Positions 3,001-59,774 of a stretch of 64,000 nt of DNA are shown here, in pieces. Numbering within the stretch: position 1 is the first letter of the stretch; the number at the start of each line of letters is the position of its first letter. Under the pieces are notes generated by a model that searched no databases, was not told where the DNA came from, and was given only the letters and a program-made list of their open reading frames with translations. The position numbers were made by a program, and so were the translations under genes. This DNA is from an uncultured Clostridia bacterium (GTDB taxonomy: Bacteria; Bacillota; Clostridia; Christensenellales; CAG-917). Where the stretch lies: positions 6,315 to 70,314 of the forward strand of contig CANQNC010000001.1 of NCBI GenBank assembly GCA_947625145.1. The letters are read 5' to 3'.

Positions 3001-4089
3001 CAACCCTTGCTCTCAACCGACGCGTTGAAACTTGTCGCGCTCAAAGCGAAAGCCGTGGAAATGGCGACCAAGGACGCGAACATGTTCATCTACACCGCGG
3101 GCAAGGAGACGGAAAGCGAAACCTACAACCGCATCCTGCCGCTTGCCATATACGAGATAGGGCACCTCGCAAGCTATTCCGCGGTGGACAGCTGCGATCT
3201 GTATTACAGGGTCAAAGCGGAAGGGCCGACGCAATATTCCTACACTGCCTACACAAACACAAACAACAAGGTCTATGTGGAGATCCTAGGATCCAAGCAA
3301 TACACGGACGTGGCGTCCTCGGGCACAAAGACTCCGCTGTACTACGACCCCGAAAAGCCCTCGCATGCGGATCTTCCAAAATTCGAACTGCATACGTCCG
3401 AAACAAAGGAGTTTATCGTCCCCATTTCGGATTCGGACTACGGCTATGACAAAGAACACGACCTCACCCTTGCCCTGCAATATTGCTATCCCGTGTACTT
3501 CCTCAACTCGCCGTACTCCAAGCCCGATCGTGACACGGACTATGTGTATGTCAACGGCGCGTACGTGGTCTACGACGAGGGCAACCCCGCACACAACGCG
3601 GAAGACGTACAGCACTTCACAATGAAGATGGGATATATCGCGCAATTCGGCGAGGCGTTCTACTATGACGTTTCGAACGGCCGCGTCGCCACGACCGCGC
3701 TTTCCCCCGCAAAGGTCTCTGTGATAAGAGAGCGCAGTTCCGCCGTTCTCCGCTTGCTTGCGCAACAGACGGTCAAAAACATGAACGGCATAATCGCGGA
3801 GGCGAAGATAGGCGACTTCATGGACATCACCCCCGGCACCATCTTCGACAACGAGCAAATCCAAATGTCCACGCTGAACGACCTCGGCATAACGCTGTTT
3901 TCGGTGTTTACAAACATGACCGTGGGCGAACTGCTTGAATGGAGCAACATCACCACCATTCAACCCTCCGTCGCTTCGATTTTGCACGACGTGAAGATCC
4001 CCGACTTCTTTGCGGGACTTCAGCTTGACGCGAGCACGGGCAATATCGTCGTGGACGTGCGCGCGCTCTACGGCTTGAGCAAGGATTGA
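1..4089 (+). CDS. Large acidic repeat-containing protein, function unknown (5' end probably off-window)
   Basis: Track ORF 10..4089 (1359 aa, GTG start chosen by the ORF caller). Nt 1-9 are open in the same frame, so the gene probably starts upstream. A short motif L-x-[IL]-[GSD]-E-[LIM]-[IL] recurs (LSIGELRD, IKIGEIID, LTIGELIAVD, LTISELLRID, LKIDELIEID, LTLSEMIEL, LMLGEIIDIN, MTVGELLEW). No family recognised. Confidence 0.6.
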   Translation, partial: SSSVLEAVKMALDDYHSLDKLSLKVLYEHYGINLLKGVSGIDFTQKGFYDKPLTSIVGDMSLLLNDLYLSDISKITKMDFTTYGIPILNENLNVGLTKALDNIMGSLNSDMTLRSIKDKFGLDLGAADNDMLAALQDISLKNFGSVIDALRIDTLLNADADSFLALGNNVVYVQADDYEVVSPADLANPDYKPKDGYETYIAGAVDGKLDVKELRYFRYLADGRVVVNNTCYNEGFSVPEGVEVVRHRLYRQKTDAETADKYYVVTYANRVATLDGASYTLLEKGFEDADNIYVYNEETPVKLSSVIEGGTVNVTGAAVKVDDKFEKSPLYAIVDEEITKDSVLSEVQEPALAKFVRSHVGTSATLLQKINYLSIGELRDADSLLKGIKIGEIIDTTAPGTSKIVIALKDSTLDTIGQDINNLHVDDIFDTDSPDTALIMKSLANRHCTLNDLGSIADQLTIGELIAVDFDEYEPYNSEPADEDLADPAKSFFVKVPVYVKYDPFAADMYGEGARRGDYDEESGVFSENGDGEFVETFYYTLYGKTEHKGMQVYTQTRQSDTAIAIQSLARRGCKMSDIGSAMDQLTISELLRIDNSSAHLFKTLARKGSKMSSLAGEIDDLKIDELIEIDSSSAYLMRSLAARGCTINDLSTITDELTLSEMIELKYDEYTPDDAGKYVLVEDENSYMPYVADSDMDWRHKYTKQEGGDFVPAELPTEEPLYVHSAYYTLYNAALHTTENQYVRKTEAGAVQRYAKSAVDDASSPVLQRFASSTLGSFSSAFGTLMISDVMDIDADVYGEIDKADIHKTTVEEGDGGKSHDVYYYKEQENNQTLFYYDADNKVYRVAEQSDLKEAMEGSKTLYVVTAFGSSTSMLKKIAFVNVQEMPNALDAVISDLMLGEIIDINSDYAVGDLQAYDAYSPDEDSFYFIEWDGKTYSGTGEARREAVYVYDSQLSGKYFASDKQYVALSDEDLQGEFSTTTYYYEYKKLSELKTQFEGQPLLSTDALKLVALKAKAVEMATKDANMFIYTAGKETESETYNRILPLAIYEIGHLASYSAVDSCDLYYRVKAEGPTQYSYTAYTNTNNKVYVEILGSKQYTDVASSGTKTPLYYDPEKPSHADLPKFELHTSETKEFIVPISDSDYGYDKEHDLTLALQYCYPVYFLNSPYSKPDRDTDYVYVNGAYVVYDEGNPAHNAEDVQHFTMKMGYIAQFGEAFYYDVSNGRVATTALSPAKVSVIRERSSAVLRLLAQQTVKNMNGIIAEAKIGDFMDITPGTIFDNEQIQMSTLNDLGITLFSVFTNMTVGELLEWSNITTIQPSVASILHDVKIPDFFAGLQLDASTGNIVVDVRALYGLSKD

Positions 4090-4110
4090 TCGGATCAAAA
4101 CCACACGCTT

Positions 4111-4140
4111 CCCCGCGGAGATCCCGCGGGGTTTTCTTTT
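4111..4140 (+). terminator. Rho-independent terminator
   Basis: Hairpin CCCCGCGG-agat-CCCGCGGGG followed by TTTTCTTTT, about 20 nt after the stop at 4089. Confidence 0.8.
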
Positions 4141-4183
4141 GCCTTGAAGTATAAAATCCCTCGGCGTTGGCAACAATCCTAAA

Positions 4184-4735
4184 ATGAAAAAATCAAGATC
4201 CGACAACACCGAACTTGCCCTTCTCAAAGCGGCGCTCCGCTCGCCCGAAGCCCCCGTCTTGCCCGACCCTCCCGAGGCAAGCACGGAAGCGAAACGTCAG
4301 ATCGTGGTCGTCTGCTTCGGCACAACGGCCATTTCGGGGGACGCGCTCGGACCCATGGTGGGCAGTCAGCTTGTGGACAAATACAACGTGCCCGCCTTTG
4401 TGTACGGCACCGAAAACCATTGCGTAAACGGCAAAAACATGAAGGAGTGGTTGAACTTCATTCGAGCCGTGCACTCGGACGCGCTGTTTGTCGCGGTGGA
4501 CGCGGGGCTGGGCGCAAAGGACAAAGTGGGACGGCTTGTGATACGCGACGACGGCGTTTGTCCCGCCGCCATCAAGGGCAAAAAGGAACGCTTCGGCGAC
4601 ATAGGCATACTCGGCATCGTCGCGGAAAACAAAGGGGACGCGCTTATGCAACTTATGACCGTATCCCCGCTTTATGTTGCGGAAATGGCGGATAAAATCG
4701 CGAATATGTTGCAATCCGAACTTTTTTCGGCTTGA
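4184..4735 (+). CDS. yyaC: Sporulation protein YyaC family (putative spore protease-like, DUF1256)
   Basis: 183 aa. The core IVVVCFGTTAISGDALGPMVG...VYGT...FVAVDAGLG...GILGIV matches the YyaC pattern (CIGTDRSTGDxLGPLVG / IDACLG) as I remember it from Bacillus. yyaC is origin-proximal in B. subtilis. Confidence 0.65.
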   Translation: MKKSRSDNTELALLKAALRSPEAPVLPDPPEASTEAKRQIVVVCFGTTAISGDALGPMVGSQLVDKYNVPAFVYGTENHCVNGKNMKEWLNFIRAVHSDALFVAVDAGLGAKDKVGRLVIRDDGVCPAAIKGKKERFGDIGILGIVAENKGDALMQLMTVSPLYVAEMADKIANMLQSELFSA

Positions 4736-5003: not shown

Positions 5004-6350
5004 TCAATACACTCCCTCGGCGAGCATCGCCTCCGCGACCTTTTTGAAGCCCGCAAGGTTTGCCCCCGCGACAAGGTTGTAGCCCATGTTGTACTCGGTG
5101 AGCGTGTCGCAGATCTTGTCGTGAATGTCGCGCATGATGTCTCTGAGGCGCATGTCCACTTCCTGCGCCGACCAATTGAGCCTCTCGCTGTTTTGGGACA
5201 TCTCAAGCCCCGACGTCGCCACTCCGCCCGCGTTGACCGCTTTGGACGGGGCGACAAGCACGCCGTGCTGTTGCAGATAGGCGCACGCCTCGTTTGTCGT
5301 GGGCATGTTGGACACCTCGTTGAGCACCGGGACTCCCATTGCCACCATGGCGACGGCGTCGTCTAGCGTGATCTCGTTTTGCGTGGCGCAAGGCATATAT
5401 ACGTCCGCCTTGACGTTGCCCCACGGCTTCTTGCCCGCGACGTACTCGCAAGGATAGCGGTCGGCATAGTCCTTGACAAGGTTGCGGTTGGACGCGCGCA
5501 TTTTCAGCATAAAATCCATCTTCTCCCCGCTTACGCCGTCGGGATCGTAGACATAGCCGTCCGGGCCCGAAAGCGTGACCACCTTTCCGCCAAGCTCGGT
5601 GATCTTTTTTGTCGCGCCCCACGCGACGTTGCCAAACCCGGACAGGCAAAACGTCTTGCCCTTTATGTTTTCCCCCTCGTGCCGCAAGACCTCGGTCAAA
5701 AAGTAGGTCGCGCCGTAGCCCGTCGCCTCGGGACGTATCAACGAGCCGCCGTAGCTCAGCCCCTTGCCCGTCAGCACGCCGTTTTCAAACGCGCCGACGA
5801 TGCGCTTGTACTGCCCGAAAAGATATCCTATCTCTCTGCCGCCCACGCCCATATCCCCCGCGGGGACGTCCATGTTCGGACCTATGTGGCGATACAGCTC
5901 GGTCATAAACGCTTGGCAAAAGCGCATGATCTCATTTTCCGACTTGCCCGTGGGATCGAAGTCGCTGCCGCCCTTCGCGCCGCCCATGGGAAGGGACGTC
6001 AAGGAGTTTTTGAATGTCTGCTCGAACGCAAGGAACTTCATCATGTCCAAATTGACGTTGCCCTGAAAGCGAAGCCCTCCCTTGTAGGGCCCTATGGCGT
6101 TGTTGAACTGCACGCGGTAGCCCCTGTTGACATGAAACTCGCCCTTGTCGTCCTCCCATGTCACCCTGAAGATCAGCTGACGATCGGGCTCCACCATTCT
6201 TTCAAGTATCCTGAACTTCTTCAACACGCCTTCGTTTTGCTCGACGGCGGGCTGTATGGAGCGTAGCACCTCGCCGACGGTCTGCAAAAATTGGACCTGT
6301 CCTCGGTTTTCGCGAGCGGTCATTTCAAAAACATCTTGCACATAGGACAT
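5004..6350 (-). CDS. gdhA: NAD(P)-specific glutamate dehydrogenase, copy 1
   Basis: 448 aa with canonical Glu/Leu/Phe/Val dehydrogenase motifs: GPYKGGLRF, LPMGGAKGGSDFDP, GDMGVG, GFGNVAWG (Rossmann fold). Confidence 0.95.
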   Translation of the reverse strand: MSYVQDVFEMTARENRGQVQFLQTVGEVLRSIQPAVEQNEGVLKKFRILERMVEPDRQLIFRVTWEDDKGEFHVNRGYRVQFNNAIGPYKGGLRFQGNVNLDMMKFLAFEQTFKNSLTSLPMGGAKGGSDFDPTGKSENEIMRFCQAFMTELYRHIGPNMDVPAGDMGVGGREIGYLFGQYKRIVGAFENGVLTGKGLSYGGSLIRPEATGYGATYFLTEVLRHEGENIKGKTFCLSGFGNVAWGATKKITELGGKVVTLSGPDGYVYDPDGVSGEKMDFMLKMRASNRNLVKDYADRYPCEYVAGKKPWGNVKADVYMPCATQNEITLDDAVAMVAMGVPVLNEVSNMPTTNEACAYLQQHGVLVAPSKAVNAGGVATSGLEMSQNSERLNWSAQEVDMRLRDIMRDIHDKICDTLTEYNMGYNLVAGANLAGFKKVAEAMLAEGVY

Positions 6351-12329: not shown

Positions 12330-13682
12330 ATGGATTACATCAAAGAGGTCATCGCAATGACGGAACAAAAAAACTCCTCTCAGCCCGAATTTTTGCAGAC
12401 TGTCCGAGAGGTGTTGGGCTCGATCGGTCCTTTTGTTGACGAAAACGAGGCAGAGCTAAGGAAGTACAGCGTCCTCGAGCGCCTCGTGGAGCCCGACCGT
12501 CAGATCATCTTCAAAGTGCCATGGATGGACGACAACGGCGTCTATTGCGTCAATCGCGGCTATCGCGTGCAATTCAACAACGCGCTCGGACCCTACAAGG
12601 GCGGCTTGCGCTTCAGAAACAACGTGAACCTTTCCGTCATCAAGTTTTTGGGCTTTGAGCAGATCTTCAAAAACTCCCTCACATCTCTTCCCTTGGGTGG
12701 CGCGAAAGGCGGAAGCGATTTCGACCCCCGCGGCAAGTCGGATATGGAGATCATGCGCTTTTGCCAATCCTTCATGACCGAGCTTTATCGCCATATAGGC
12801 GCGGATCTGGACGTCCCCGCGGGAGATATCGGCGTCGGCAGTCGTGAGCTCGGCTTCCTTTACGGGCAATACAAGCGCATCACGGGCAACTTCATAAGCG
12901 GCGTGCTTACGGGCAAGGGCTTGAGCTACGGAGGCTCACTCATTCGCCCCGAGGCGACGGGATACGGCGCCGCGTATCTGCTCTGCGACGTGCTGGATCA
13001 CCTCGGCGATTCCATAGAAGGCAAGACGTTTTGCCTTTCGGGCTACGGCAACGCGGCATGGGGCGCGGCAAAGAAGATATCCGCGCTCGGAGGCAAAGTC
13101 CTCACATTGTCGGGCGGAGAGGGATATGTCTACGACAAAGACGGCGTAAGCGGCGAAAAGGTGGACTTCATGGAACATATGCTCACCCTTCGCGCGGAGG
13201 GCAAGAGCGCACTTTCCGCATATGCCGAAAAATATCACGCGGAATTCTTCCCGGGCGAAAAGCCGTGGGGCAACGTACCCGCGGATGTCTATATGCCCTG
13301 CGCTTGCCAAAACGAAATCGACGTCGCGGAAGCGGAAAAGATGGTGGATATGGGCGTAAAATATCTGTGCGAAGTGTCCAACATGCCCACGTCAAACGAG
13401 GCGATCGCCCTCCTGCAAAGCAAAAACGTGGTCATCTTGCCCGCAAAAGCGGCAAACGCGGGCGGCGTTGCTGTCAGCGGTTTGGAAATGGCGCAAAACT
13501 CCGCTCGCCTTGTGTGGAGCGCGGACAAAGTGGACGCCAAACTCAAAGAGATCATGCACGGCATCCACGAGCAAATGCTCGAGGTCATCAACCTCTACAA
13601 ACTGCCCTACGATCTCGTCGCGGGCGCAAATATCGCGGGCTTCAAAAAGGTCGCGGACGCAATGCTCGCGCAGGGCGTATAA
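12330..13682 (+). CDS. gdhA: NAD(P)-specific glutamate dehydrogenase, copy 2
   Basis: 450 aa with the same motif set (GPYKGGLRF, LPLGGAKGGSDFDP, GDIGVG, GYGNAAWG). RBS GGAGG lies 6 nt upstream. About two-thirds identical to copy 1 by eye. Confidence 0.95.
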   Translation: MDYIKEVIAMTEQKNSSQPEFLQTVREVLGSIGPFVDENEAELRKYSVLERLVEPDRQIIFKVPWMDDNGVYCVNRGYRVQFNNALGPYKGGLRFRNNVNLSVIKFLGFEQIFKNSLTSLPLGGAKGGSDFDPRGKSDMEIMRFCQSFMTELYRHIGADLDVPAGDIGVGSRELGFLYGQYKRITGNFISGVLTGKGLSYGGSLIRPEATGYGAAYLLCDVLDHLGDSIEGKTFCLSGYGNAAWGAAKKISALGGKVLTLSGGEGYVYDKDGVSGEKVDFMEHMLTLRAEGKSALSAYAEKYHAEFFPGEKPWGNVPADVYMPCACQNEIDVAEAEKMVDMGVKYLCEVSNMPTSNEAIALLQSKNVVILPAKAANAGGVAVSGLEMAQNSARLVWSADKVDAKLKEIMHGIHEQMLEVINLYKLPYDLVAGANIAGFKKVADAMLAQGV

Positions 13683-13712
13683 GCAAAAACGCACTACGTT
13701 TTGCGGTTTTTT
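13683..13712 (+). terminator. Rho-independent terminator after gdhA copy 2
   Basis: Hairpin GCAAAAACG-cacta-CGTTTTGC (one bulge) followed by GGTTTTTT, immediately after the stop codon. Confidence 0.7.
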
Positions 13713-13865
13713 GAAAAATTCGCAGTTTTCCGCGAACAAAATTCAAGCGGTTCGGCAGTCGGCCGAGCCGCTTTTGTTTTTCCTCTTTCATTCAAGCATT
13801 ATGCTTTGTTTGGAAAAATGTTTTGTTGGACGCGGGGCAAAAAAATCAAGCTCTTTCCGCATGTT

Positions 13866-14561
13866 TTACAGCGGCTTGTTCTTTATGACGCCGTATCGCC
13901 TCGGATACATGGGCGGAGTGTCCGCTATCTTTTCAAACACGAGTATCGCCCTTTCCGAATTGTCGGGAAGCACAAACTTTTTTGTCATGATATGCCGCAT
14001 GCCGAGCGCGCGTTGCGCGTTTTTCGACGTTTGAAGCTCGCTCTCGTCTGTTTTGTATGCAAAAAACACTCCGCCTTTTTTGAGAAGAGGCGCCGCAAGC
14101 TCCAAAAGCACAGGCAGCGACGCGACCGCGCGCGCCGTGACGTTTTCAAACTTGCAAAACAAATCCCTCGCCTCTTCCGCTCTTCCCGCGATCGCGTTCA
14201 GGTTTGCAAGCCCCAACTTCTCCGCCGCTTCCTTGATGAAGTTTATCTTTTTTGCGGTCGAATCCAATGCGGTCACGGCAATATCCTCTCTTGCAATCGC
14301 AAGCGGCACGGACGGGAACCCCGCTCCCGCGCCTATGTCGCACAATTGGCCCTTTTTGAGGAGGGGCGCCGCAAGCAGGGAATCCGCAAAATGCTTTATC
14401 GCAAAATCCCGCTCGTCGGTTATTGCCGTAAGATTGAACCTTTTGTTCGCCTCGTCGACAAGCAATTGGAAATCGGACAGTTTTTGCAGCCGTCCCTCGT
14501 CAAGCGCTATCCCCTGCTCCTCCAAATATCTTGCGATAAGTTTAAGGTTGTCGTCGGTCAT
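13866..14561 (-). CDS. rsmG: 16S rRNA (guanine527-N7)-methyltransferase RsmG/GidB
   Basis: 231 aa with the SAM motif DIGAGAGFPSVPLAI and overall GidB-like layout. This is a typical origin-proximal gene. Confidence 0.9.
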   Translation of the reverse strand: MTDDNLKLIARYLEEQGIALDEGRLQKLSDFQLLVDEANKRFNLTAITDERDFAIKHFADSLLAAPLLKKGQLCDIGAGAGFPSVPLAIAREDIAVTALDSTAKKINFIKEAAEKLGLANLNAIAGRAEEARDLFCKFENVTARAVASLPVLLELAAPLLKKGGVFFAYKTDESELQTSKNAQRALGMRHIMTKKFVLPDNSERAILVFEKIADTPPMYPRRYGVIKNKPL

Positions 14562-14670
14562 ATCGCAAGTTTAACACCTTGTCAAAAAGAAAGCAATACA
14601 AACGCATTATTTTGCCGCAGGGCGTTGCATTTTTTTTGTACTGTGCTAAAATTTTAGACGGAGGCGTTTT

Positions 14671-15393
14671 ATGAGAATCGCAATTATCACGGCAATGGCA
14701 AAAGAGAGCCTTCCCATCTACGAAAAACTTGGGGTAGCCGTCGCGCAAAACAGAATCGCAGGCGTGGATGTGTGCAAGCTCCAATTCGGAGAGCACTCGG
14801 TGTTTTTGGCAACGGGCGGGGTCGGCGAGATAAAAGCCGCGCTCACCGTCCAACTTTTGAAAGATCTGTTCGACGTCGACGTCGCGCTCAACTTCGGGTT
14901 TGTCGGCGCGCTTTCGGACAAACTGTCCGTCGGGGAACTTGTGCTTGTCAACAAAGTGTGTCACTATCAATTCGACACGTCTTTGATAGACAACACGCAA
15001 AAAGGACAATATCCCGAAAAAGAGGATATCTACTTCTATTTGGACGGATCCCTTATAGACAGAGTTGTCTCCGCGCTTCGTTTGCCCATCAAGACGGTCA
15101 CGGCTGTAAGCGGAGACGTTTTTGTCGGTTCGACCGAGCAAAAACAGCATCTAAAGGAGTGTTTTGGCGGCGAGATCTGCGAGATGGAGCTTGCGGGATT
15201 GGCAATCGCTTGCGAGCGGAACAGGCTTCCCTTGTTGTCTGTGAAGGTGGTTTCGGACAGAGCGGACGGCGGCGCCGCCGAAAGTTTCGAGACTGTTGTG
15301 GAAAAAGGGTTGGGCAAATATGAAAAGATCCTTCCCGACATTCTAAACGCCGTTGCGGGCGACATATCCCCGCTCCCGCCCGTAAGGAAATAA
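14671..15393 (+). CDS. mtnN: 5'-methylthioadenosine/S-adenosylhomocysteine nucleosidase family (PNP_UDP_1)
   Basis: 240 aa with MRIAIITAM...GGVGEIKAA...EMELAGLA...VKVVSDRAD, characteristic of Pfs/MtnN. RBS GGAGG upstream. Confidence 0.75.
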   Translation: MRIAIITAMAKESLPIYEKLGVAVAQNRIAGVDVCKLQFGEHSVFLATGGVGEIKAALTVQLLKDLFDVDVALNFGFVGALSDKLSVGELVLVNKVCHYQFDTSLIDNTQKGQYPEKEDIYFYLDGSLIDRVVSALRLPIKTVTAVSGDVFVGSTEQKQHLKECFGGEICEMELAGLAIACERNRLPLLSVKVVSDRADGGAAESFETVVEKGLGKYEKILPDILNAVAGDISPLPPVRK

Positions 15394-15489
15394 CTTCGGC
15401 TTTGGGGTATCTGTATTGTTTTTGCAACCTTTGCGGATATCTATATTACCCATGCGGTTTCGGCGAGCACATATTGATTTCACAACCAC

Positions 15490-15520
15490 GCGGTTTGACT
15501 GTTTGTCAAGCCGCTTTTTA
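15490..15520 (+). terminator. Rho-independent terminator after mtnN
   Basis: Hairpin GCGGTTTGAC-tgttt-GTCAAGCCGC followed by TTTTTA. Confidence 0.75.
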
Positions 15521-15996
15521 TAACACACAACAAACACCTATGCTGTAAGCCGAACCCCTTCCCCAAAGCGTCCGAGCACAATTGTAAACAACACGCAAAA
15601 CGCGTCAATCAACACAAACAACACATGCAAAACACACAAAAAAATCATGTAGAGCACACACAAACCGATGTAGAAACTCTCGGAAAAACATATAAACACA
15701 AACACCACACAAAAGAGGAAGCAAAACATTCACAAGAGCAACCACAAACAATATCCCAAGTCATAAACACCAACATCAGAAGCAAGCGTCAATTGCGTAA
15801 GATAGTAAAAACAAACACATTTCGGAAGGGGTGATGAAAAACGCGCTCCTGTTTCGATCTTTTGGCTTGGTTTGATTGTTTGCAACAAACCGAGCCGTTG
15901 GTCAATAACAGCCGAAAAATCAAAACATTGGCAAACCGCCAAACAATACGATTTGTTTGACGTTGCGCTCCGCCGTAAAAAAGCAAAAAGAGGCGA

Positions 15997-16323
15997 TCAA
16001 CCTCTTTTCTTTTTTCTGGTTTTTGGGGTCAAAATCCGCGATATTATCGATTTGAACAGCCCTTGCAAAAACTCCTTGTCGTTGACATTTTCAACCAAAA
16101 GGTATTCGAAAGTATTTTCCGTCGGGCTAACAAACGGCGCGTCTGGCATATAGTCCATCGCCGCAAGGAAGGGTTTCACAAACAACCTGTCCCCATAGAT
16201 GCCGCCGACATGAATTCCCCTGTAGTACAATACGAAATCACCGTCGAGAGGCAGGTATGCCACGTCCTCAAGATCATCAAGCTGCTCGAAAATAAAGTGT
16301 AAAAACGACCTGCTTGACGCCAT
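15997..16323 (-). CDS. TfoX N-terminal domain protein
   Basis: Track ORF 15997..16329. I prefer the ATG at 16323, which has AAGGAG 6 nt upstream. MASSRSFLHFIFEQL...LFVKP... fits the TfoX_N pattern (MASSKEFxEyvxEQL...LyvK). Confidence 0.65.
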   Translation of the reverse strand: MASSRSFLHFIFEQLDDLEDVAYLPLDGDFVLYYRGIHVGGIYGDRLFVKPFLAAMDYMPDAPFVSPTENTFEYLLVENVNDKEFLQGLFKSIISRILTPKTRKKKRG

Positions 16324-16355
16324 AAGCAACTCCTTTAGAACCTTACTTTATTACA

Positions 16356-16383
16356 ATTATAGCAAAACCTTCCGAGTTGGCAA
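16356..16383 (-). promoter_or_regulatory. Sigma-A type promoter for the tfoX-like gene
   Basis: On the minus strand: TTGCCA (16383..16378), 16-nt spacer, TATAAT (16361..16356), about 30 nt upstream of the start codon. Confidence 0.6.
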
Positions 16384-17268
16384 GCGATTTTTTGCACCAT
16401 GTTTTTATATTTGAAATTTTTATCCTTTTTCGCCACCCATTTGAGGGTAATTTGTCTAAAAATCATCATATTTTTTGCAAAAAATATAAAAACATACTCA
16501 TTTGTATGATTATATACCCACTTTCTTCATTTCATATTATTAAAGCTCGATTTTCTCGAAAATTGTGCTTTTTCTCCCTCTCTCGCCACCTCCGCGCCTC
16601 TCTCCGATTTTTCCTACCAAACCACCCATATCACAGCGCCCTTACGGACCTTCCACAATCTCTACCCATCACACTCTTCCGAATTTTCCTCGCCCTCTCC
16701 CTGCCATATTTTATTTTACAACCCAACCTATCCCCACATACACCACATGATCACCTTACAAACATTCTTCTCTTTCTACCCTTCACAACAATCCTTTTTT
16801 CTCACAAGTTCTCCTCATTCTCCCTGCAACACTCAACACCTCCCGATCGAACAAATATCCCCACCAACGCTCGCCTCACCTTTCAACCTCTCATACTTTT
16901 TCCAATACACCATCACATTTCCCACACTTTCTTCCCTCTCATCACCACACCGACACACACTCTTGTTTTTCCTTATCCCCCTTCTCGTTTTTTCTCACTC
17001 TCCACATACACCTTGCGCAAATTTTCCTCTCCTCACCCAAATCACCTAGCATTTTTCCAACCGCACTCACCTTCTTCCACTCTTCACTCCCATGTTTTCA
17101 TTTGTAACCAATCCCCTCTCGGTTTCTCATCATCAACCCCTCACAAACATCTTTCAAATTTCTCTTATATTCTCGCCACACCCCTTTTTTCAAAAATATT
17201 TCCCTCTGTCCCCTAGCCTAGCAACTCCACGGTTCGCTTCTAAATCCACAGGCTTCGCGTTTTTGATT

Positions 17269-17277
17269 TTATCCACG
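17269..17277 (+). promoter_or_regulatory. DnaA-box-like 9-mer (TTATCCACG, 1 mismatch)
   Basis: Compared with the consensus TTATCCACA. Confidence 0.35.
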
Positions 17278-17418
17278 ATTGTTTATACCACGCCCCTAAA
17301 CCACAAAACAGCCTTGATTTTACAAATTTTCCTTTCTACATTTCTTTATCAATTTTTCTATTGTTGATTCAAATATTTCCACACACTTCTTGAAGTATAT
17401 GTAGAGCTACAAAACAAG

Positions 17419-17443
17419 CCGCAAACCTTCTTTGGGTTTGCGG
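17419..17443. terminator. Strong hairpin inside the island (possible bidirectional terminator)
   Basis: CCGCAAACC-ttctttg-GGTTTGCGG (9-bp stem). It is followed by TATTT on the + strand and CTTGTTTTG on the - strand. Confidence 0.4.
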
Positions 17444-18474
17444 TATTTCCAAATTTTGGTTTTATAATTTTTTTTTCTCACTTAAAACAAAAAAAAACAT
17501 ACCATCCATCATCCCAGCTCTAAAAAATTGTGTTTCACACAATCCCAGCTCAGTAATTTTGAAAAATACAAAATTTTCCAAATAACCAATTTACCATCTT
17601 GTTCAACCAAGACATCACAATTAAATTTTTTATTTTCAATCTATGTTCATAAAAAAAAACAATCTGTTAATGCAAATCTAAAACAACATATTTGTCTTGG
17701 TTTTTTACAAATTTTTCCAAATATCTATTTCCATATTTACCCCACTATATTACTCGCTCACTTTTGAACATTCTTTATTTTACTCTTAAAACAACAATCT
17801 TTGTTGATTGAGCTTGATTATTAAACATAAGTAGCTGTTGTGTTTTAACTTTCTATCTCTCCACTCATAAAAAATTGTAAACATACCCTCATAAAACAGC
17901 AGCGATCATATAAATCCTTTTTCAAAACCGATTATAATTACATTTTATTTCATCTCAGAACTATCTATACTAAATTTTTATTTATTCTCTTAATCAAAAT
18001 CTTTGTTGTATATCTCCCCTTAAAGCGACACTTGATTTATAAATTCTCTCAATACATCACTTTATTTGTATACACTCTATCAAACCCTGCAATCATACAA
18101 CACTTCTCAAACACTCTTCCAATCAAACATGTCTCCGACTTACGTTTGTATATCTAATATATTATTTGACCACCGGTTTACACACCACCACACCTACACA
18201 ATTTCGTTTTTAATACAAAACACAACCGTGGCGTTTAATTATCAACACACTCACCACCAAAACCAAACAACTTTAATTACAACTTAAAACAACACGGTAA
18301 CTCGCGCATTACTCTTCTTACTTTTAACTCAAACACACACTTATCAACAACAAAACAAACAGTTATTACTTCTGAATATTTTTTTTATTTTGCTTAAATC
18401 TTTATACATTTTACTCTCATCTTTTATAAAAATTCTGTTTTTTTTAGCAAAAAAATTTTTCTATAATCCAAAAT

Positions 18475-18490
18475 TGTTTCACGTAAAACA
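18475..18490. promoter_or_regulatory. parS: parS site (ParB/Spo0J binding), 1 mismatch
   Basis: TGTTTCACGTAAAACA versus the consensus TGTTNCACGTGAAACA. Confidence 0.7.
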
Positions 18491-18780
18491 TTTTATAAAA
18501 AAAACCTGTGCTTATATATAAAAATTTTTATCCGATTTTATAAAAAAATCTTTTTCTTTGTCCATTTTTTTTTTCAAACAATTATATTTTTTAGATTCAC
18601 ACAGCAAAATTAACTCAATAAAACCCACACACTTTTCATTTTTGAGTACAAATAAAAATAAATCTAATATTAATCAAAATCATCAATAAATTTTCTTTGT
18701 TGATTTTTCTTTATAAAACACCCCGCTTAAACATATATTTTATAAATTTTTATATTTCCTGTAAAACACAAATCTAAAAA

Positions 18781-18796
18781 TGTTTCATGTGAAACA
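18781..18796. promoter_or_regulatory. parS: parS site, 1 mismatch
   Basis: TGTTTCATGTGAAACA. Confidence 0.75.
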
Positions 18797-19100
18797 ATCA
18801 AAATTTCACATCATGTTTTGTGTAATATTGTTTGTTTTTTTTGGGATAAATTTTCCAATAAAAAAACAAACTCTAACCATTTACTTGTTATTTGCATATT
18901 TACATATCGTTTTTTATATTAAATTTGTTTATTTGTATAATTTTGTTGTTTTGTATTAAAAACTATTTTTTATATTGTTTCTCCCATTATCTTGCCGGAA
19001 ATATACTTAAATGCTTTTATTTGATTTTATCCGATCATTGGTTTATTTTCTTCTTCTTCTTCATTCAATTCAAAACAATGTTTGATTTAAAATAAAATTT

Positions 19101-19121
19101 TTATCCCCAATTTTATCCCCA
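19101..19121 (+). promoter_or_regulatory. Pair of direct DnaA-box-like 9-mers (TTATCCCCA x2, 1 mismatch each, 12-bp period)
   Basis: TTATCCCCA at 19101..19109 and at 19113..19121. They lie exactly where the strand-composition polarity starts to flip. Confidence 0.45.
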
Positions 19122-19352
19122 CCTTGAAATTTATTTTTTTTATTCTATATACTCAGATTAAGCTATATCAAGCTTCCAAAGCGCTTTTGATACTGTTTGC
19201 GTTTTATTATTCCTTACACATCAACATTCACTCAAAGGCCGCCAATATCAATTTATATCAAATTAAAAGGGTATATAAAACGTATTAATAACAATCTTGC
19301 ACAAAGTTGAAAAATCAAATCTTATCAAATAACCGGTTTGTTTTATTATAGA

Positions 19353-19382
19353 TTGTAATACATTTTTAAGTTATGATACAAT
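19353..19382 (+). promoter_or_regulatory. Candidate extended -10 promoter firing rightwards into the parS pair and the C-depleted arm
   Basis: TTGTAA (19353..19358), 18-nt spacer ending in TGa, then TACAAT (19377..19382). There is no ORF downstream. Confidence 0.3.
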
Positions 19383-19446
19383 TTCCAACAAACCAATAAA
19401 TACAGCAAGATCACTTAAAACACACATGTATTTGTGTAAAACTATA

Positions 19447-19462
19447 TGTTTCACGTGAAACA
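19447..19462. promoter_or_regulatory. parS: parS site, perfect palindrome
   Basis: TGTTTCACGTGAAACA, identical to the pan-bacterial parS consensus. Confidence 0.9.
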
Positions 19463-19478
19463 GTTTGATTTTAGCTTG

Positions 19479-19494
19479 TGTTTCATGTGAAACA
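19479..19494. promoter_or_regulatory. parS: parS site, 1 mismatch, 16 bp from the perfect site
   Basis: TGTTTCATGTGAAACA. Confidence 0.8.
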
Positions 19495-20325
19495 AAATTT
19501 TGATTTTTGCCACTGTTTAGTGGTGTTTTTGCAGTGTGATGGATAAATATTTATTCTTTCACCATGAAAAATTTAAGTTTTGTTTGACCATGAAAATGCA
19601 TGTGGATTTTTTTTATCTGTGTTTTGGTGTGTAAAGCGGTGTTTTTTGCTCATGTGTTTTTTCTTATATATGGTTTGTTGTATTTTATTTTGGGTTGGTA
19701 TATCTTTGTTTTGTGATATTATAATTTACTGTATATATTAAATAAAATTGGCTGTATAGAGATAAAAATTGCTGTATAGTTGTATTGTTTGAAGCAAAAA
19801 ATGATGTAGAGATCATTGAAACATAGTGTGTTGACATTTGCCACTATCACGTTTTGATACACGATAGAATAGATTGTTGCAAATTTTTCATCTTGGCAAA
19901 AGAAAACAGTCCGCTTTTTGAAGATCAAAATTATAGTTTGTTGTGTTTGATAAAGGAATTGTGTTATGGCGTTATGTTGTTTGGGTATATTGATTGTGTT
20001 GTTATTTGGTTGAGCTTCTGTCGCATGGTTGCGGTTGAGAGTTGAGTGTTGCTTTTTTTTGTTTCAAAGCGACAACGCTTGCCTCATGGTTAAATTTGAG
20101 CGTTGATGGTTGTATTGTTGCGTTATTTCAGCCTCGCTTCGGTGTGATTTTCAGTGTTGTTTTATCACGTTATTACAGCATTACTTAGGTATCATATTTG
20201 GTGTTTCTTATTGCTGTTTTCGTTATTGCAATTGTGTAAAATTTGAAACCGCATTGTTGAATTTATCATGATAAAACGGCATCAGATGATTTGATTTTAT
20301 GCCGAGAATTTTTGTAAAAAATTGA

Positions 20326-20341
20326 GGTTTCACGTCAAACA
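20326..20341. promoter_or_regulatory. parS: Degenerate parS-like site (2 mismatches)
   Basis: GGTTTCACGTCAAACA. Confidence 0.45.
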
Positions 20342-20351
20342 AAATATCCAC

Positions 20352-20360
20352 TTGTCCACA
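20352..20360 (+). promoter_or_regulatory. DnaA-box-like 9-mer (TTGTCCACA, 1 mismatch)
   Basis: Preceded by ATATCCACT (20343..20351). Weaker TGTGGATTT elements follow at 20463 and 20486. A very AT-rich stretch lies at 20361-20430. Confidence 0.45.
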
Positions 20361-20721
20361 TTTTATGAAAAATTTATAGAAAATTTGTTAAATTTTCTAT
20401 GTTTTGATTAATTTGTAAACATTTATTTATGAGTTATACACATTTATTTTTTTTGTTTGCCATGTGGATTTTTTTTGTTTATATTGTGGATTTGAAGATG
20501 ATTCAAAACGGTGATGTTGTGTTGGCATTTTTAGATTGTTTTTTTTGTGTGATGCAAATTTATAAGATCGTAAAAACAGTTGTTTGTTACAGGGTTACAA
20601 CAATCAAGCAAAGGGATAGGATATATCTAACTATGCCGCAAGTGTAAAATAGTTGTTTTGTAAACAGTTTGTTTTCTCGCTTCTACTCTCAAACTTCGCT
20701 TTATTACGTGAAGCATGAGAT

Positions 20722-20761
20722 AAACATAAAAACACAACACACCAAACAATTGTTTGGTGTG
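20722..20761 (-). terminator. Rho-independent terminator of dnaN
   Basis: Perfect 24-bp palindrome CACACCAAACAATTGTTTGGTGTG (20738..20761). On the minus strand it is followed by TTGTGTTTTTATGTTT. It lies about 150 nt after the dnaN stop. Confidence 0.7.
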
Positions 20762-20908
20762 CCGATCGCTTGTATGTGTGTGTTATTTTGATGTGTACTG
20801 CAAGTATAAGCCGAATATCTCTTCATACGCTTACAAATTGGCTTACATTTGCAAAGCTCCACAGATCACACAATTGTGGTTTGAAGTGCGGCGCGGTGCA
20901 AGGTGCCG

Positions 20909-22009
20909 TCATCCGATAACGCGAAGGGGCAGTATGAGATACAGCCACTTGTCGCTTTCGCCCTTGATGATGCCGGGGGCGGTGGATGTGGTGAAGTTAA
21001 GTGTGATCACAGGCTCGTCTATCGCATGCAGGCAGTCGATAAGGTATTTTGTGTTGTAGCCTATAATAAGATCTTTGCCTTGCAAACCAATCGTTACTCT
21101 TTCATTGACCTCGCCGTCCTCGCCCTGAGCGTTCAGGAGCAGTGTGTCCTCTTTGATGTCCATCTTGACGATCGCTTTCTTTTCCGTTCTGTTGATGAGC
21201 GCGGCTCTTTCGACAGCGTTTTCAACAAGTTTCTTGTCCGCGGTGACGACAGTGGTGAAGGATACGGGAATGATATGCTCGTAGTTGATATACTCCTCAC
21301 TTATAAGCCTCGTCACGATCTTTGTGTGGAACAAATCCACCATAATGTAGGATTTTTCAACGTACACCGTGATTGTTTCCTCGCCGTCCTCAATGAGTCG
21401 GCTGAGCTCGGTCATACTCTTTGACGGAACAAGGATCTTTTTCAGCACGCCGTTGTTTTTTATCATAGTGCGCGTAAGGGCAAGTCTGAAGCCATCCGAG
21501 GCGACGATTTCGATCTCATCGTCCTTTATATTGAGGCAAACGCCTTTCAAAGAGGGGCGCGCTTCATCCTGAGACACGTTGAAGATGACCTTTGCGATCG
21601 CTTCCTTGAAATCTTTTTTGAGTATGACAAAGGATTGCTCGGTGTCCACCTCTTTGAATATGGGATATTCATCCACAGGCAAGCACTTGATCTGCAATTC
21701 GCTGTCCAGATACTTGATGACGAGGCGATTTGGATTTGTGCCGTCAAGCTCGACTTCCTCTTCCTCGATCTTTTTCGCATAATCCGCAAAAAGCCTGCCC
21801 GGAACGACCATTTCCCCTTCGATAAGCACTTGCGCGTTGATCTTCTTTTCAATTGCAAGCTCGAGGTCGGTCGCAAACAAAGTGACCGTGTCGCCCACAG
21901 CGGTCAGTTTTACGCCTTCCAAGATGAGATTGTTCCTCCTGATGGGGAGGGCTTTCACAACCTTTGACAGAGCATCGCTCAATTCATTTCCTTGACAAAT
22001 AACCTTCAT
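20909..22009 (-). CDS. dnaN: DNA polymerase III beta sliding clamp
   Basis: 366 aa with three-domain clamp length and typical N-terminus (MKVICQGNELSDALSKVVKALP), comparable to Firmicute DnaN. Confidence 0.93.
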   Translation of the reverse strand: MKVICQGNELSDALSKVVKALPIRRNNLILEGVKLTAVGDTVTLFATDLELAIEKKINAQVLIEGEMVVPGRLFADYAKKIEEEEVELDGTNPNRLVIKYLDSELQIKCLPVDEYPIFKEVDTEQSFVILKKDFKEAIAKVIFNVSQDEARPSLKGVCLNIKDDEIEIVASDGFRLALTRTMIKNNGVLKKILVPSKSMTELSRLIEDGEETITVYVEKSYIMVDLFHTKIVTRLISEEYINYEHIIPVSFTTVVTADKKLVENAVERAALINRTEKKAIVKMDIKEDTLLLNAQGEDGEVNERVTIGLQGKDLIIGYNTKYLIDCLHAIDEPVITLNFTTSTAPGIIKGESDKWLYLILPLRVIG

Positions 22010-22159
22010 ATTTACGCCTGTTTATATTTTATTTTTATCTTTAATAATGATATCATAAATAAAGCCTGTTGACAAGTGGAATTTGTTTTCAAACAACAAT
22101 ATTGTGTATTTGGCAAAACAAAGCCGTCTTATATGTTGTGATTTTTCGCGATTTAGAAG

Positions 22160-22168
22160 TGTGGATAA
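22160..22168 (-). promoter_or_regulatory. Perfect DnaA box (TTATCCACA on the minus strand)
   Basis: The + strand reads TGTGGATAA. It lies in the 209-bp AT-rich spacer upstream of dnaN. Confidence 0.7.
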
Positions 22169-22208
22169 GTTTTGGGAGATATAAACAAAACGCGAACATA
22201 TTTTCGGA

Positions 22209-22217
22209 TTGTCCACA
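22209..22217 (+). promoter_or_regulatory. DnaA-box-like 9-mer (TTGTCCACA, 1 mismatch)
   Basis: It is in inverted orientation relative to the perfect box 41 bp away. Confidence 0.5.
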
Positions 22218-22218
22218 A

Positions 22219-28622: not shown

Positions 28623-28760
28623 GCTTTGAGGAAAGGTCGAAAAAAAGAGAACACGGGCGAAACATATCGCAAAAAAACAAGATAAACAAACAAAAGATAA
28701 GCTCGGCGCAAAGGATATTCGCGGCTGTGAAACAATGCGGAATTTTGTTGTGAAACATTG

Positions 28761-28789
28761 TTGTGTTTTTCAAGGGATTGTGTTAATAT
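28761..28789 (+). promoter_or_regulatory. Candidate extended -10 promoter of parA, 7 nt upstream of the ATG
   Basis: TTGTGT (28761..28766), 17-nt spacer ending in TGt, TAATAT (28784..28789), then 7 nt to the ATG at 28797. TGTGAAACA half-parS motifs lie at 28726 and 28749. Confidence 0.4.
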
Positions 28790-28796
28790 TTTCTAT

Positions 28797-29564
28797 ATGG
28801 GAAAGATAGTGGCTTTTTCAAATCAGAAGGGCGGCGTGGGCAAAACGACGTCCTGCGTCAATCTTGCGGCGTCTATCGCGGCGGTGGGGCGCAAGGTGCT
28901 TGTTGTGGATTTCGACCCGCAAAGCAACGCGTCAAGCGCGCTCGGAGTGTTTGACAAGCGGGCAAAGGGCAGCATATACGACGTCCTTTGCGACGGGCTT
29001 GAAGCAAGCGCGGCGGTCATAGACGTCGAGCCGAAGGGGCTCAGCCTCATACCCTCGTCAAGCGATCTTGCGGGCGCGGAGCTTGAACTCAGCCAAATCG
29101 TGATAGGCAGAGAGCGCGTGCTCGAGGAAAAACTTGCCGACGTCAAGGATATGTACGACTTTGTGTTTATAGACTGTCCGCCCTCGCTCGGGCTGTTGAC
29201 GGTCAACGCGTTGACCGCGGCAAACGGCGTGATCGTGCCCATTCAGTGTGAATATTTTGCGCTGGAGGGGCTAAGCCAGATGATGAACACCATCAAACTT
29301 GTCAAAAAACATCTCAATCACGACCTCGAGTTTTACGGCGTGATACTCACCATGTACGACAGCCGCGCAAAGCTCACAAAAGGCGTTGTGGAGGAGATAG
29401 GCAAGCTGTTTGCGGACAAGATCTTCGATGTCAAGATCCCGCGCAACATTCGGTTGGCGGAGGCTCCGAGCTACGGCAAGCCCGCGTTGCTTTACGACAG
29501 CCGCTGTTCGGGTGCTATAGCGTACGACAATTTGGCAAAGGAAATCATACAAAAAATCAAATAA
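28797..29564 (+). CDS. parA: Chromosome partitioning ATPase ParA/Soj
   Basis: Track ORF 28758..29564. I prefer the ATG at 28797 (MGKIVAFSNQKGGVGKTT, deviant Walker A at the N-terminus as in Soj). Confidence 0.93.
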   Translation: MGKIVAFSNQKGGVGKTTSCVNLAASIAAVGRKVLVVDFDPQSNASSALGVFDKRAKGSIYDVLCDGLEASAAVIDVEPKGLSLIPSSSDLAGAELELSQIVIGRERVLEEKLADVKDMYDFVFIDCPPSLGLLTVNALTAANGVIVPIQCEYFALEGLSQMMNTIKLVKKHLNHDLEFYGVILTMYDSRAKLTKGVVEEIGKLFADKIFDVKIPRNIRLAEAPSYGKPALLYDSRCSGAIAYDNLAKEIIQKIK

Positions 29565-29574
29565 GGAGTGTATT

Positions 29575-30468
29575 ATGGCAAATGCAAGAGGCGGTCTCGG
29601 CGCCCGCGGACTGAACGCGCTGTTCACAGACAATCAGGAAAACGTGCACGTTGATATCAACGAGGACTTCCCCACGCAGGATATCGACATCATGCTTATC
29701 GATCGCAATCCCGCGCAACCCCGCAAGACCTTCAACGAGGACAGCCTGAAAGAGATGGCAAACTCCATTGCCGCCTACGGCGTGTTGCAACCCCTGCTGT
29801 TGGTCAAGACGGAGGGCGGAAGATACCTCATCATTGCGGGCGAGCGGCGCTATCGCGCAAGCCTTATGGCAGGGCTGAAAAAAGTCCCCGCGATCGTGCG
29901 CGAGTTTACGCCTCAGCAGATACAAGAGATATCCTTGATCGAAAACCTGCACCGCGAGGACCTCAACGCGATAGAGGCGGCGGAAGGTATGCGCGAGTTG
30001 ATGGAAAATCACGGGCTGACCCAAGAGGAAGTCGCTCAGCGCATAGGCAAATCCCGCCCCTACGTCACAAACACGTTGAGGCTCCTTCAACTTCCCGTCG
30101 AGGTCACCGAGCTTGTCCGCAACGGCGAGCTGTCTCCGGGGCATGCGCGCGCTCTCATCTCCATAGACGATAAGGACCAGCTTATCGCCCTCGCCAAAAA
30201 GTGCGTGGAAAAGAAGCTGTCCGTCAGAGAGCTCGAGCAGGAAGTGCGCCTCTACTTCTCCCGCAAGGCAATTCCGCACGGCCCGAGAGAAAGGTCCGTG
30301 TCTCTCGAGATGAGAGAGCTTGTCAACGACATGAAGCGCGTGTTCTCCACCAAAGTCGTGCTGAAAGGCACGGAAAACAAGGGCAGGATCACAATAGACT
30401 ACTTCACGCCCGACGACCTCAACCACATCCACAGCCTCATCCAGATGCTCAAAAAATACAGCGACTGA
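29575..30468 (+). CDS. parB: Chromosome partitioning protein ParB/Spo0J
   Basis: 297 aa with the ParB boxes IAGERRYRA and LIENLHREDLN plus an HTH (QEEVAQRIGKSRPYVTN). RBS AAGGAG upstream. Confidence 0.95.
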   Translation: MANARGGLGARGLNALFTDNQENVHVDINEDFPTQDIDIMLIDRNPAQPRKTFNEDSLKEMANSIAAYGVLQPLLLVKTEGGRYLIIAGERRYRASLMAGLKKVPAIVREFTPQQIQEISLIENLHREDLNAIEAAEGMRELMENHGLTQEEVAQRIGKSRPYVTNTLRLLQLPVEVTELVRNGELSPGHARALISIDDKDQLIALAKKCVEKKLSVRELEQEVRLYFSRKAIPHGPRERSVSLEMRELVNDMKRVFSTKVVLKGTENKGRITIDYFTPDDLNHIHSLIQMLKKYSD

Positions 30469-59463: not shown

Positions 59464-59774
59464 ATTCACTCCAATCAAAGCGTAAATTTTGAATACATTA
59501 TAAACCCGCGCGTGGATTTTGGCAACCGCTCAAACGCATAATGGCGCTAAATATCCTCGGGACCCGCGGACGAAAACGCCGATTTGCTCAACACTGTGGA
59601 AAGCAAAAAAGGCGCGTGGTCGGATTTGCTTCGATCAACCTAAATAAGAGTTGCGCGTTTTTGGTAAAATTTGCAAAAAGTTTTTTCATAAGATACAAAA
59701 GACACAAATGATATTGAAATCCGTTAAAATAATATGATATAATAAACAAAATCTTTGTTTTGCCGGAGGAAATA

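Follow-up and report, generated by a model that had tools for sequence, protein, structure and literature searches.

A gene-free, strand-polar island around clustered parS-like sites as a probable partition and replication origin region in an uncultured Clostridia lineage

We analyzed a 64-kb stretch of DNA (referred to as the window) from an uncultured Christensenellales-type Clostridia bacterium and focused on a gene-free island of ~4.5 kb, which lies between a gene for a 110-amino acid (aa) protein and dnaN. To the right of the island, dnaN, arsP, an M4 peptidase gene, and dnaA are encoded on the - strand and are followed by recF, parA, parB, and a gene for a Xer-like recombinase on the + strand; to its left lie the 110-aa gene, a gene for a PNP_UDP_1-family phosphorylase (the PNP gene), and rsmG, which is a classic origin-proximal gene. 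The genes dnaA, dnaN, recF, parA, parB, and rsmG are all found within about 17 kb, and both the PNP gene and dnaN converge on the island, each ending in an intrinsic terminator. All five parS-like sites in the window (0.44 expected) are in the island, within 7 kb of dnaA, and the strand composition of the DNA reverses at a tandem pair of them. Sequence analysis shows the motifs and how they are conserved, the polarity, and the gene context, and from these we infer binding by ParB and DnaA. We consider it very probable that the island represents the origin-proximal partition region (ParB/parS) of this bacterium and its probable oriC.

The parS-like sites were detected by scanning with the consensus TGTTTCACGTGAAACA, allowing up to two mismatches, and start at positions 18475, 18781, 19447, 19479, and 20326. 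They fit the 16-bp palindrome TGTTNCACGTGAAACA and span 18475-20341 (1.9 kb). The third and fourth sites form the tandem pair, which is the switch point of the GC skew as well as a block conserved across all clades. Next to this pair, and again in every clade, stands a second kind of palindrome, in which CCACT-N4-AGTGG is placed between an A-run and a T-run. In 1.7 Mb of related DNA, we counted 102 copies of its 12-bp core, [C/T]ACT-[A/G]AA[C/T]-AGT[G/A], of which 82 are at most 60 nt from a parS site (1.8 expected), and the core accompanies 39 of 40 tandem pairs, in counts that include many near-identical genomes and are not independent. In all clades, a distance of 15-25 nt separates the palindrome from parS sites; it is present in most of the relatives' loci anchored on the PNP gene (described below), and is found at about 16430-16450 in one of the loci compared, L104. 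The center of the core is conserved, its outer positions vary without co-variation, and the hairpin that it could form is weak (-5.5 to -9.3 kcal/mol). As judged from these features, the palindrome is more likely to be a protein-binding site than a weak bidirectional terminator.

The island stands out from the remainder of the window (A24 C26 G27 T23, in percent) by its strand composition. The + strand contains only ~5-7% G over 16.4-19.4 kb and is then C-poor and G/T-rich as far as 20.7 kb. In a 200-nt composition profile, the GC skew of the + strand is about -0.8 at 16.6-17.2 kb (within the C-rich block that we call zone i) and -0.3 to -0.6 from 17.2 kb through 19.3 kb, changes sign at 19.3-19.5 kb, and remains positive to ~20.6 kb with a peak of +0.61, and the GC content has its minimum of 17-25% in the island center. 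When determined in 300-nt windows, the absolute GC skew in the island has a median of 0.44 and a maximum of 0.83, compared with a 99th percentile of 0.34 outside it and values of at most 0.22 in the other spacers. Given the G frequency of the window, 34 or fewer G in 661 nt, as in zone i, has P ~1e-45, and C/G exceeds 2 without a break for 782 nt starting at 16499. A first description of this DNA, made without database searches (the sequence-only reading), had placed the skew far beyond ordinary bacterial GC skew, with which these values agree, and its four spot counts were exact (7 G, alongside 71 C, in the 180 nt of 16741-16920, 10 G+C in 18541-18600, 16 G and 4 C in 19621-19680, and 20 G and 5 C in 19981-20040). 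Its picture of an AT-rich island with two mirror-image arms needs qualification: the mirror holds for G and C and fails for A and T, T exceeding A on the + strand of both arms, and the AT-richness applies to the center and not to zone i (Table 1). Further, spacers elsewhere in the window, which it took to be shorter than 250 bp, include ones of 446-652 nt in the open reading frame (ORF) map.

Skewed non-coding DNA extends to the left of the 110-aa gene, where the 603-nt spacer at 15394-15996 displays the same outward polarity as the island; this spacer contains the terminator-like hairpins of two convergent genes and short CAAACAACA-type repeats. The cumulative G-C curve of the window reaches its minimum at 19425, which is 22 nt before the tandem parS pair. 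All spacers to the left of the island have C>G (-0.01 to -0.17), and most of those on the right have G>C, a change of sign that is as expected if replication diverges from the island. We searched the island for repeats and found no large repeat or tandem architecture, just the parS copies and small duplications; the residual G/C dinucleotide context in the island gave no clear deaminase signature, and no convincing k-mer motif was shared between its outward strands.

DnaA-box-like motifs with at most one mismatch occur seven times in the island, compared with 2.3 times in local-composition shuffles (P=0.007), and twice at 20300-20520, where 0.1 would be expected. Directly after the last parS site, a stretch of ~15% GC (20361-20460) lies between boxes of opposite orientation; the five box-like motifs that flank it, some on each strand, occupy 20344-20493, and, with regard to a DnaA-trio array, the box at 20485-20493 is followed by GAAGATGAT. 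This block, which is partly conserved, contains our candidate for an unwinding element. The only perfect DnaA box of the window is in the arsP-dnaN spacer, which could regulate dnaN or provide the other part of a bipartite origin, and no DnaA box is present in the 118-nt spacer between dnaA and recF. We note that, across loci L001-L106, dnaA is never followed by dnaN and is always divergent from recF across ~110 nt without a DnaA box, that arsP-dnaN is a unit in the lineage, and that the M4 peptidase gene lies between arsP and dnaA in this species. The island itself abuts dnaN and coincides with the skew switch of the window. The origin of replication that the sequence-only reading had offered as one explanation is thus supported in its place, i.e. 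among dnaA, dnaN, recF, parAB, and rsmG, and in its polarity, i.e. the window minimum and the sign change between spacers; DnaA-box-like motifs are enriched as well. The features of the locus are collected in Table 1.

Table 1. Coordinates of the island, its motifs, and neighboring features in the 64-kb window (base composition in percent)
Feature	Position	Strand	Remarks
rsmG/gidB	13866..14561	-	Pfam GidB 5e-46; called in L113 too; origin-proximal gene
PNP_UDP_1-family phosphorylase gene	14671..15393	+	Pfam 9e-32; by synteny the conserved left neighbor of the parS island across the lineage
A/C-rich, G/T-poor spacer between PNP gene and 110-aa gene	15394..15996		15520-15820: A48 C28 G12 T12
110-aa gene	15997..16329	-	Codon periodicity p=0.0075; terminator
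Zone i, C-rich, G-poor non-coding block	16560-17220		A22 C40 G5 T32; 45% GC
GC-rich strong hairpin, terminator-like on both strands	17419..17443		Inner edge of zone i
Inner left part	17450-18400		A35 C22 G6 T36
AT-rich (17-35% GC), G-poor (6-7%) center	17450-19430		Fast-evolving compared with L049
Central part	18400-19450		A35 C15 G7.5 T42
parS site 1	18475..18490		TGTTTCACGTAAAACA, 1 mismatch; kept in L049
parS site 2	18781..18796		TGTTTCATGTGAAACA, 1 mismatch; kept in L049
Tandem parS pair	19447..19494		Perfect site and 1-mismatch site, starts 32 nt apart
Right arm	19450-20720 (listed also as 19495..20720)		+ strand G/T-rich, C-poor: A26 C10.5 G20 T43
A-run / CCACT-N4-AGTGG / T-run palindrome	19503..19530, core 19511-19522		CACTAAACAGTG; beside tandem pair
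parS site 5, joined to a pair of DnaA-box-like motifs	20326..20360		ATATCCACT, TTGTCCACA; block conserved in relatives
AT-rich stretch, candidate unwinding element	20361..20493		More DnaA-box-like motifs at 20434 +, 20463 -, 20485 -
dnaN intrinsic terminator	20735..20764	-	13-bp stem
dnaN	20909..22009	-	Abuts the island
arsP-dnaN spacer, AT-rich	22010..22218		Sole perfect DnaA box of the window (22160-22168) and TTGTCCACA (22209)
dnaA	26048..27409	-	Divergent from recF across 118-nt spacer
parA	28758-29564	+	AAA_31 (ParA-type) 6.7e-64
parB, full-length	29575-30468	+	ParB_N 1.6e-31, HTH_ParB 5.6e-38, ParB_C 1.3e-3

Three assembly records contain the island, namely the window and two further contigs, which jointly cover both of its junctions. 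The first of these (L113, an ENA SPAdes contig) is 99.96% identical to the window over 13098-20772. The second (L049, a Logan contig from another run and a different strain) encodes an identical DnaN and has flanking genes that are 96.5% identical, whereas its island is 83-92% identical with many indels; it has kept all five parS sites and the same skew, which flips at the tandem pair. An assembly artefact, which the sequence-only reading had named as a possibility, was rejected on the agreement of the three records, and we take the island to be real. Between the window and L049, there are 14-15% mismatches plus indels in the G-poor center and 6% mismatches in the right arm, compared with 0% at 4-fold degenerate sites in the peptidase gene, 4.5% in dnaN, and 12.3% in arsP, so that divergence of the center is at or above that of the most divergent 4-fold sites. 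This implies that the sequence of most of the island evolves almost free of constraint. The uneven divergence of the 4-fold sites indicates a mosaic history of the two strains. We also note two insertions in L049 relative to the window, at 3915-4462 (548 nt) and 5320-5705 (386 nt), the latter of which is skewed like its surroundings and holds another ACT-N4-AGT palindrome.

To relate the island to other members of the lineage, we compared loci of relatives with 49-64% identity in PNP and 63-79% in DnaN. The species is rare, and since even its next relatives have only 79% DnaN identity and islands that cannot be aligned with it, substitutions could not be polarized. In these next relatives, dnaN is followed by ordinary genes. 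The conserved neighbor of the parS region is instead the rsmG-PNP pair, the arsP-dnaN, dnaA/recF, and parAB blocks being shuffled among clades; by this synteny, the island in the window is the positional homologue of the parS regions of its relatives. In 63 further PNP-anchored loci, 3-5 parS sites are found within 0.7-5.9 kb after PNP, most with a tandem pair ~33 nt apart, in low-GC DNA of 2.6-4.8 kb. The length free of ORFs is unreliable in skewed DNA, in which stop-poor sequence gives rise to spurious ORFs, and codon periodicity was used in its place; by this measure, the gene-free stretches amount to ~4.5 kb in L104, ~4.2 kb in L067, and ~3 kb in L101. Just two blocks of the island can be aligned to any relative, one with the tandem pair (19437-19497) and one with a parS site and DnaA box (20327-20363). 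Most clades tested have G>C (up to +0.34) and T>A in the 1 kb that follows the pair, and about half have A>T in the 1 kb that precedes it. The full architecture is seen at ~50% GC in L104 (52% PNP identity), where, counted per 100 nt, a block of C46-47 and G9-18 precedes the pair and 2 kb of 33-55% G follow it. This indicates that AT-richness is not essential. In L067, a long (CCAA)n microsatellite at about 14120-14240 occupies a site in the parS island analogous to that of the C-rich block in the window. The comparison with relatives that the sequence-only reading called for returned, as positional homologues, gene-free parS islands of 3-4.5 kb with the same polarity in unalignable sequence, and we conclude that a gene-free, fast-evolving spacer around parS is a lineage-wide trait. 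We note, as a separate matter, that the contigs of L001, L004, L010, L011, L014, L016, L017, L019, and L038 end 30-500 nt after dnaN, which suggests a strain-variable or hard-to-assemble junction there, though the parS island of these relatives is elsewhere.

Zone i contains an ORF of 279 aa, which is longer than the ORFs in 98.6% of Markov simulations. Its length can be attributed to the depletion of G, which leaves TAA as the sole available stop codon. The predicted product is rich in Leu, Phe, Ser, Pro, and His with 2% acidic residues, matches no Pfam or NCBIfam family, and, among 5.8 billion proteins, matched only an identical sequence. The ORF lacks codon periodicity (chi2 2.4, p=0.88), as opposed to real genes here (chi2 61-156, p<1e-10), the real genes of the window having a GC content of ~0.63 at third and ~0.3 at second codon positions. 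In the equivalent block of L104, all three frames are open, and the protein sequences are unrelated. On periodicity, composition, and homologue search, we rejected the ORF as a protein gene. None of the small ORFs in the right arm is credible either, and the island is non-coding, as the sequence-only reading had it. In Rfam searches, no family reached the gathering threshold anywhere in the 64 kb and none matched the island at E<=1, and the folding of three island segments did not differ significantly from that of shuffled sequences on either strand (z = +0.3, -1.0, and -1.2); we thus found no evidence for a structured non-coding RNA. Zone i as a + strand RNA would comprise ~650 nt of C/U-rich sequence that is predicted to be unpaired. 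No similarity to the island was found in plasmid and phage records.

Of the flanking genes, the 110-aa gene had been labeled tfoX, for which there is no Pfam or NCBIfam support, though its codon periodicity marks it as a real-looking gene. It has no Pfam or NCBIfam match at all and no homologue in the loci of relatives, being confined to this species among the loci examined, and is preceded by a promoter-like site at 16383..16356 with a near-consensus extended -10 element (11/12 match with TG). A 318-aa ORF antisense to rsmG (13701-14657, + strand) has spurious tblastn "homologues" of 30-40% identity in relatives, which shows how an antisense frame may look conserved when it is the gene on the other strand that is. 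Elsewhere in the window, two glutamate/leucine-type dehydrogenase paralogues (5004-6350 on the - strand and 12330-13682 on the + strand) lie 6 kb apart on opposite strands, and a type I restriction-modification hsdM/hsdS pair at 59760-62790, in a stretch of 41% GC, was possibly acquired horizontally.

Overall, we propose an explanation that joins the identity of the island to a mutational skew and a constraint on composition, and to which, taken as a whole, we assign a probability of roughly 0.55. ParB, encoded 9 kb away, would load at the five parS sites over 18475-20341, with the tandem pair as the central one, and the DnaA-box-like motifs around the AT-rich stretch at 20.33-20.5 kb would be the best candidate for an initiation core. 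The remaining ~4 kb would be long-lived non-coding spacer under little sequence constraint, with the strands that read outward from the tandem pair being C-poor and G-rich. The most likely cause of this polar composition would be strand-asymmetric mutation of the origin type, i.e. loss of C from the outward, leading-sense strand, together with AT drift, such a bias accumulating where strand identity never changes. In this species, it may be strengthened by a constraint that acts on composition and not on sequence, for which the leading candidate is that inward transcripts, arising by read-through from PNP or dnaN, would be C-rich, G-poor, and unstructured and so serve as a substrate for Rho. 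We hold this account of the cause more tentatively than the identity of the island and put it at slightly below even odds. The composition of the right arm fits partial C>T conversion of average genomic DNA, the A/C-rich spacer on the left likewise resembles partial C>T conversion of the outward strand, and the polarity of the island matches the leading-strand pattern (G>C outward). Rho utilization (rut) regions have been defined as 78 nt with C/G>1, with a top class of >2 (PMC6407284). In 78-nt windows, C/G>2 is found in 73% of the inward transcript on the left and 36% on the right, compared with 2-3% elsewhere and 0-1% for outward transcripts. At the 4-fold sites of the flanking genes, no skew was seen (-0.05/0.00), which is a weak test in that a GC content of 60-83% at these sites shows that they are not neutral.

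Several observations weigh against parts of this proposal. The cumulative skew minimum is that of the 64-kb window and not of the whole chromosome, the skew flips at the parS pair ~0.9 kb away from the best cluster of DnaA boxes, the boxes in the island are mostly degenerate (1-2 mismatches), and a second small cluster of boxes lies upstream of dnaN. With respect to Rho, no rho gene was found in the 64-kb window, and the strong G-depletion of the left arm is patchy among clades and its C-richness absent in most of them, so that a two-sided Rho sink is not universal. Further, mutation is not the whole story, as the amplitude of the skew is 3-5 times that in other spacers and its edges are sharp; mutation alone does not explain 40% C in zone i or 33-55% G in the right arm of L104, both above the genomic frequency; and zone i has T>A on the + strand, which is the wrong sign of AT skew for mutation alone. 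The enrichment of C and G, the sharp edges, the amplitude, and the AT skew of zone i together make a function at the level of composition plausible. The suggestion of the sequence-only reading that the island is unconstrained DNA recording a replication bias is in keeping with its fast turnover and does not explain the enrichment of C or G to 40-55% or the wrong-sign AT skew in zone i.

An alternative would make selection the primary cause, with mutation bias secondary: the composition would be maintained such that any inward transcription gives kilobase-long, C-rich, G-poor, unstructured RNA onto which Rho can load, and RNA polymerase would thereby be kept off the ParB/SMC loading sites and the origin. 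We regard this as unlikely, although it is the best of the alternatives. It accounts for the convergent composition in unalignable DNA of distant relatives, the GC-neutral L104 included, and for C and G being raised above the genomic frequency and not merely depleted; the 782 contiguous nt with C/G>2, the convergence of terminator-bearing genes on the island, and the conservation of a terminator-like palindrome at the switch point are also in keeping with it. However, most clades lack the C-rich left arm, the inward C/G of the right arm is moderate (median 1.7), and fast turnover of the sequence fits neutrality equally well. A broader form of this idea, which we consider somewhat less likely still, is that the whole uncultured gut Clostridia lineage has a regional centromere/origin, i.e. 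a 3-4.5-kb gene-free platform with arms selected for polar composition, in which inward transcription from either side would yield kilobase-long Rho-loading RNA and/or the outward G-rich strands would expose single-stranded DNA, protecting or assisting ParB/SMC loading and initiation, with a dedicated factor on the 12-bp palindrome.

A second alternative turns the direction of transcription around. Promoters near the center would produce divergent non-coding transcripts with G-rich non-template strands, resulting either in transcription-coupled C>T decay or in R-loops that aid opening of the origin or loading of condensin. The C-poor outward strands on both sides agree with this, prediction places R-loop-forming sequences on the outward strand of each arm in L104, and loading of condensin has been reported to depend on single-stranded DNA (PMC9682359). 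The island in the window, on the other hand, has no predicted R-loop-forming sequence and no G-quadruplex motif, its promoter-like sites are at chance level (23 compared with 24.4 expected), it has neither an Rfam family nor a structure signal, and the outward strand of zone i has A>T rather than being T-rich as deamination predicts. We judge an outward element of this kind, to which the two divergent non-coding transcription units put forward by the sequence-only reading would belong, improbable.

The third possibility is that the island represents former genes erased by strand-specific cytosine deamination, as had also been suggested from the sequence, or a foreign or mobile insertion. The right arm does have a composition like that of C>T-converted DNA, and L049 differs from the window by indels of 386 and 548 nt. 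However, blastn searches in reduced alphabets (C>T, G>A, and G>T), with the window and 1.7 Mb of related DNA as targets, did not rise above reversed controls, the positional homologues in relatives are non-coding too, A22 and T32 in zone i do not fit G>A conversion, and no similar plasmid or phage record was found; we therefore rejected a hypermutated gene and a mobile element, both of which we consider very improbable. Lowest of all, and barely credible, are an assembly artefact, for which the breaks in many relatives' contigs near the region could be cited against three concordant records, and a real low-complexity protein gene, for which the length of the 279-aa ORF could be cited against its lack of codon periodicity, its 2% acidic residues, the absence of a family match, and an identical sequence as its sole match.

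Bacterial centromeres and origins are usually seen as short motif clusters among genes, whereas the lineage described here keeps several kilobases gene-free and holds their strand-polar composition while the sequence turns over at about the neutral rate. A mutational skew would mean that the island records, in nature and with unusual clarity, the raw spectrum of strand-asymmetric mutation near an origin. A selected skew would make the island an insulator that is encoded in composition and surrounds a partition and initiation site, and would bear on how ParB/SMC loading and initiation are shielded from transcription. In either case, the tandem parS pair with its palindrome offers a practical origin marker in metagenome-assembled genomes of this clade, in which the synteny of dnaA is scrambled. 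The sequence-only reading had held that no described element has this architecture, which overlooks the conserved content of the island, a parS cluster with DnaA boxes, and its parts belong to known kinds; in the literature, we found no description that combines the size of the island, strand-polar composition in unalignable sequence centered on a tandem parS pair, and the palindrome.

Among known systems, the mitochondrial control region (D-loop) and ColE1 RNA II are GC-skewed, R-loop-prone origins, to which the island may be likened by analogy as a long, strongly strand-asymmetric non-coding origin region; it differs in that the replication machinery is unrelated and that no R-loop-forming sequence is predicted in the window. 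Like rut regions, the island would give inward RNA that is C-rich, G-poor, and unstructured, above the C/G>1 criterion and in the top C/G>2 class (PMC6407284). A rut site comprises ~80 nt, whereas such RNA would here extend over hundreds to thousands. Like a bacterial oriC, the island has an AT-rich stretch with DnaA-box-like motifs of either orientation around it, beside dnaN and at the skew switch of the window. Origins typically measure 0.2-1 kb, with a location either upstream of dnaA or in the dnaA-dnaN interval; here, the spacer upstream of dnaA has 118 nt and no box, most boxes of the island are degenerate, and the surrounding non-coding DNA exceeds the usual length several-fold. Finally, the island resembles the chromosomal ParABS clusters of Bacillus subtilis, Caulobacter, and Streptococcus pneumoniae, which also have several conserved 16-bp TGTTNCACGTGAAACA palindromes near dnaA/parAB and a canonical ParB encoded nearby. 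The sites of those clusters are scattered in and between genes, whereas the sites described here are all within 1.9 kb of a 4.5-kb gene-free stretch, with a tandem pair at a fixed spacing of ~32 nt, a 12-bp palindrome at its side, and a strand composition that is polar about the pair.

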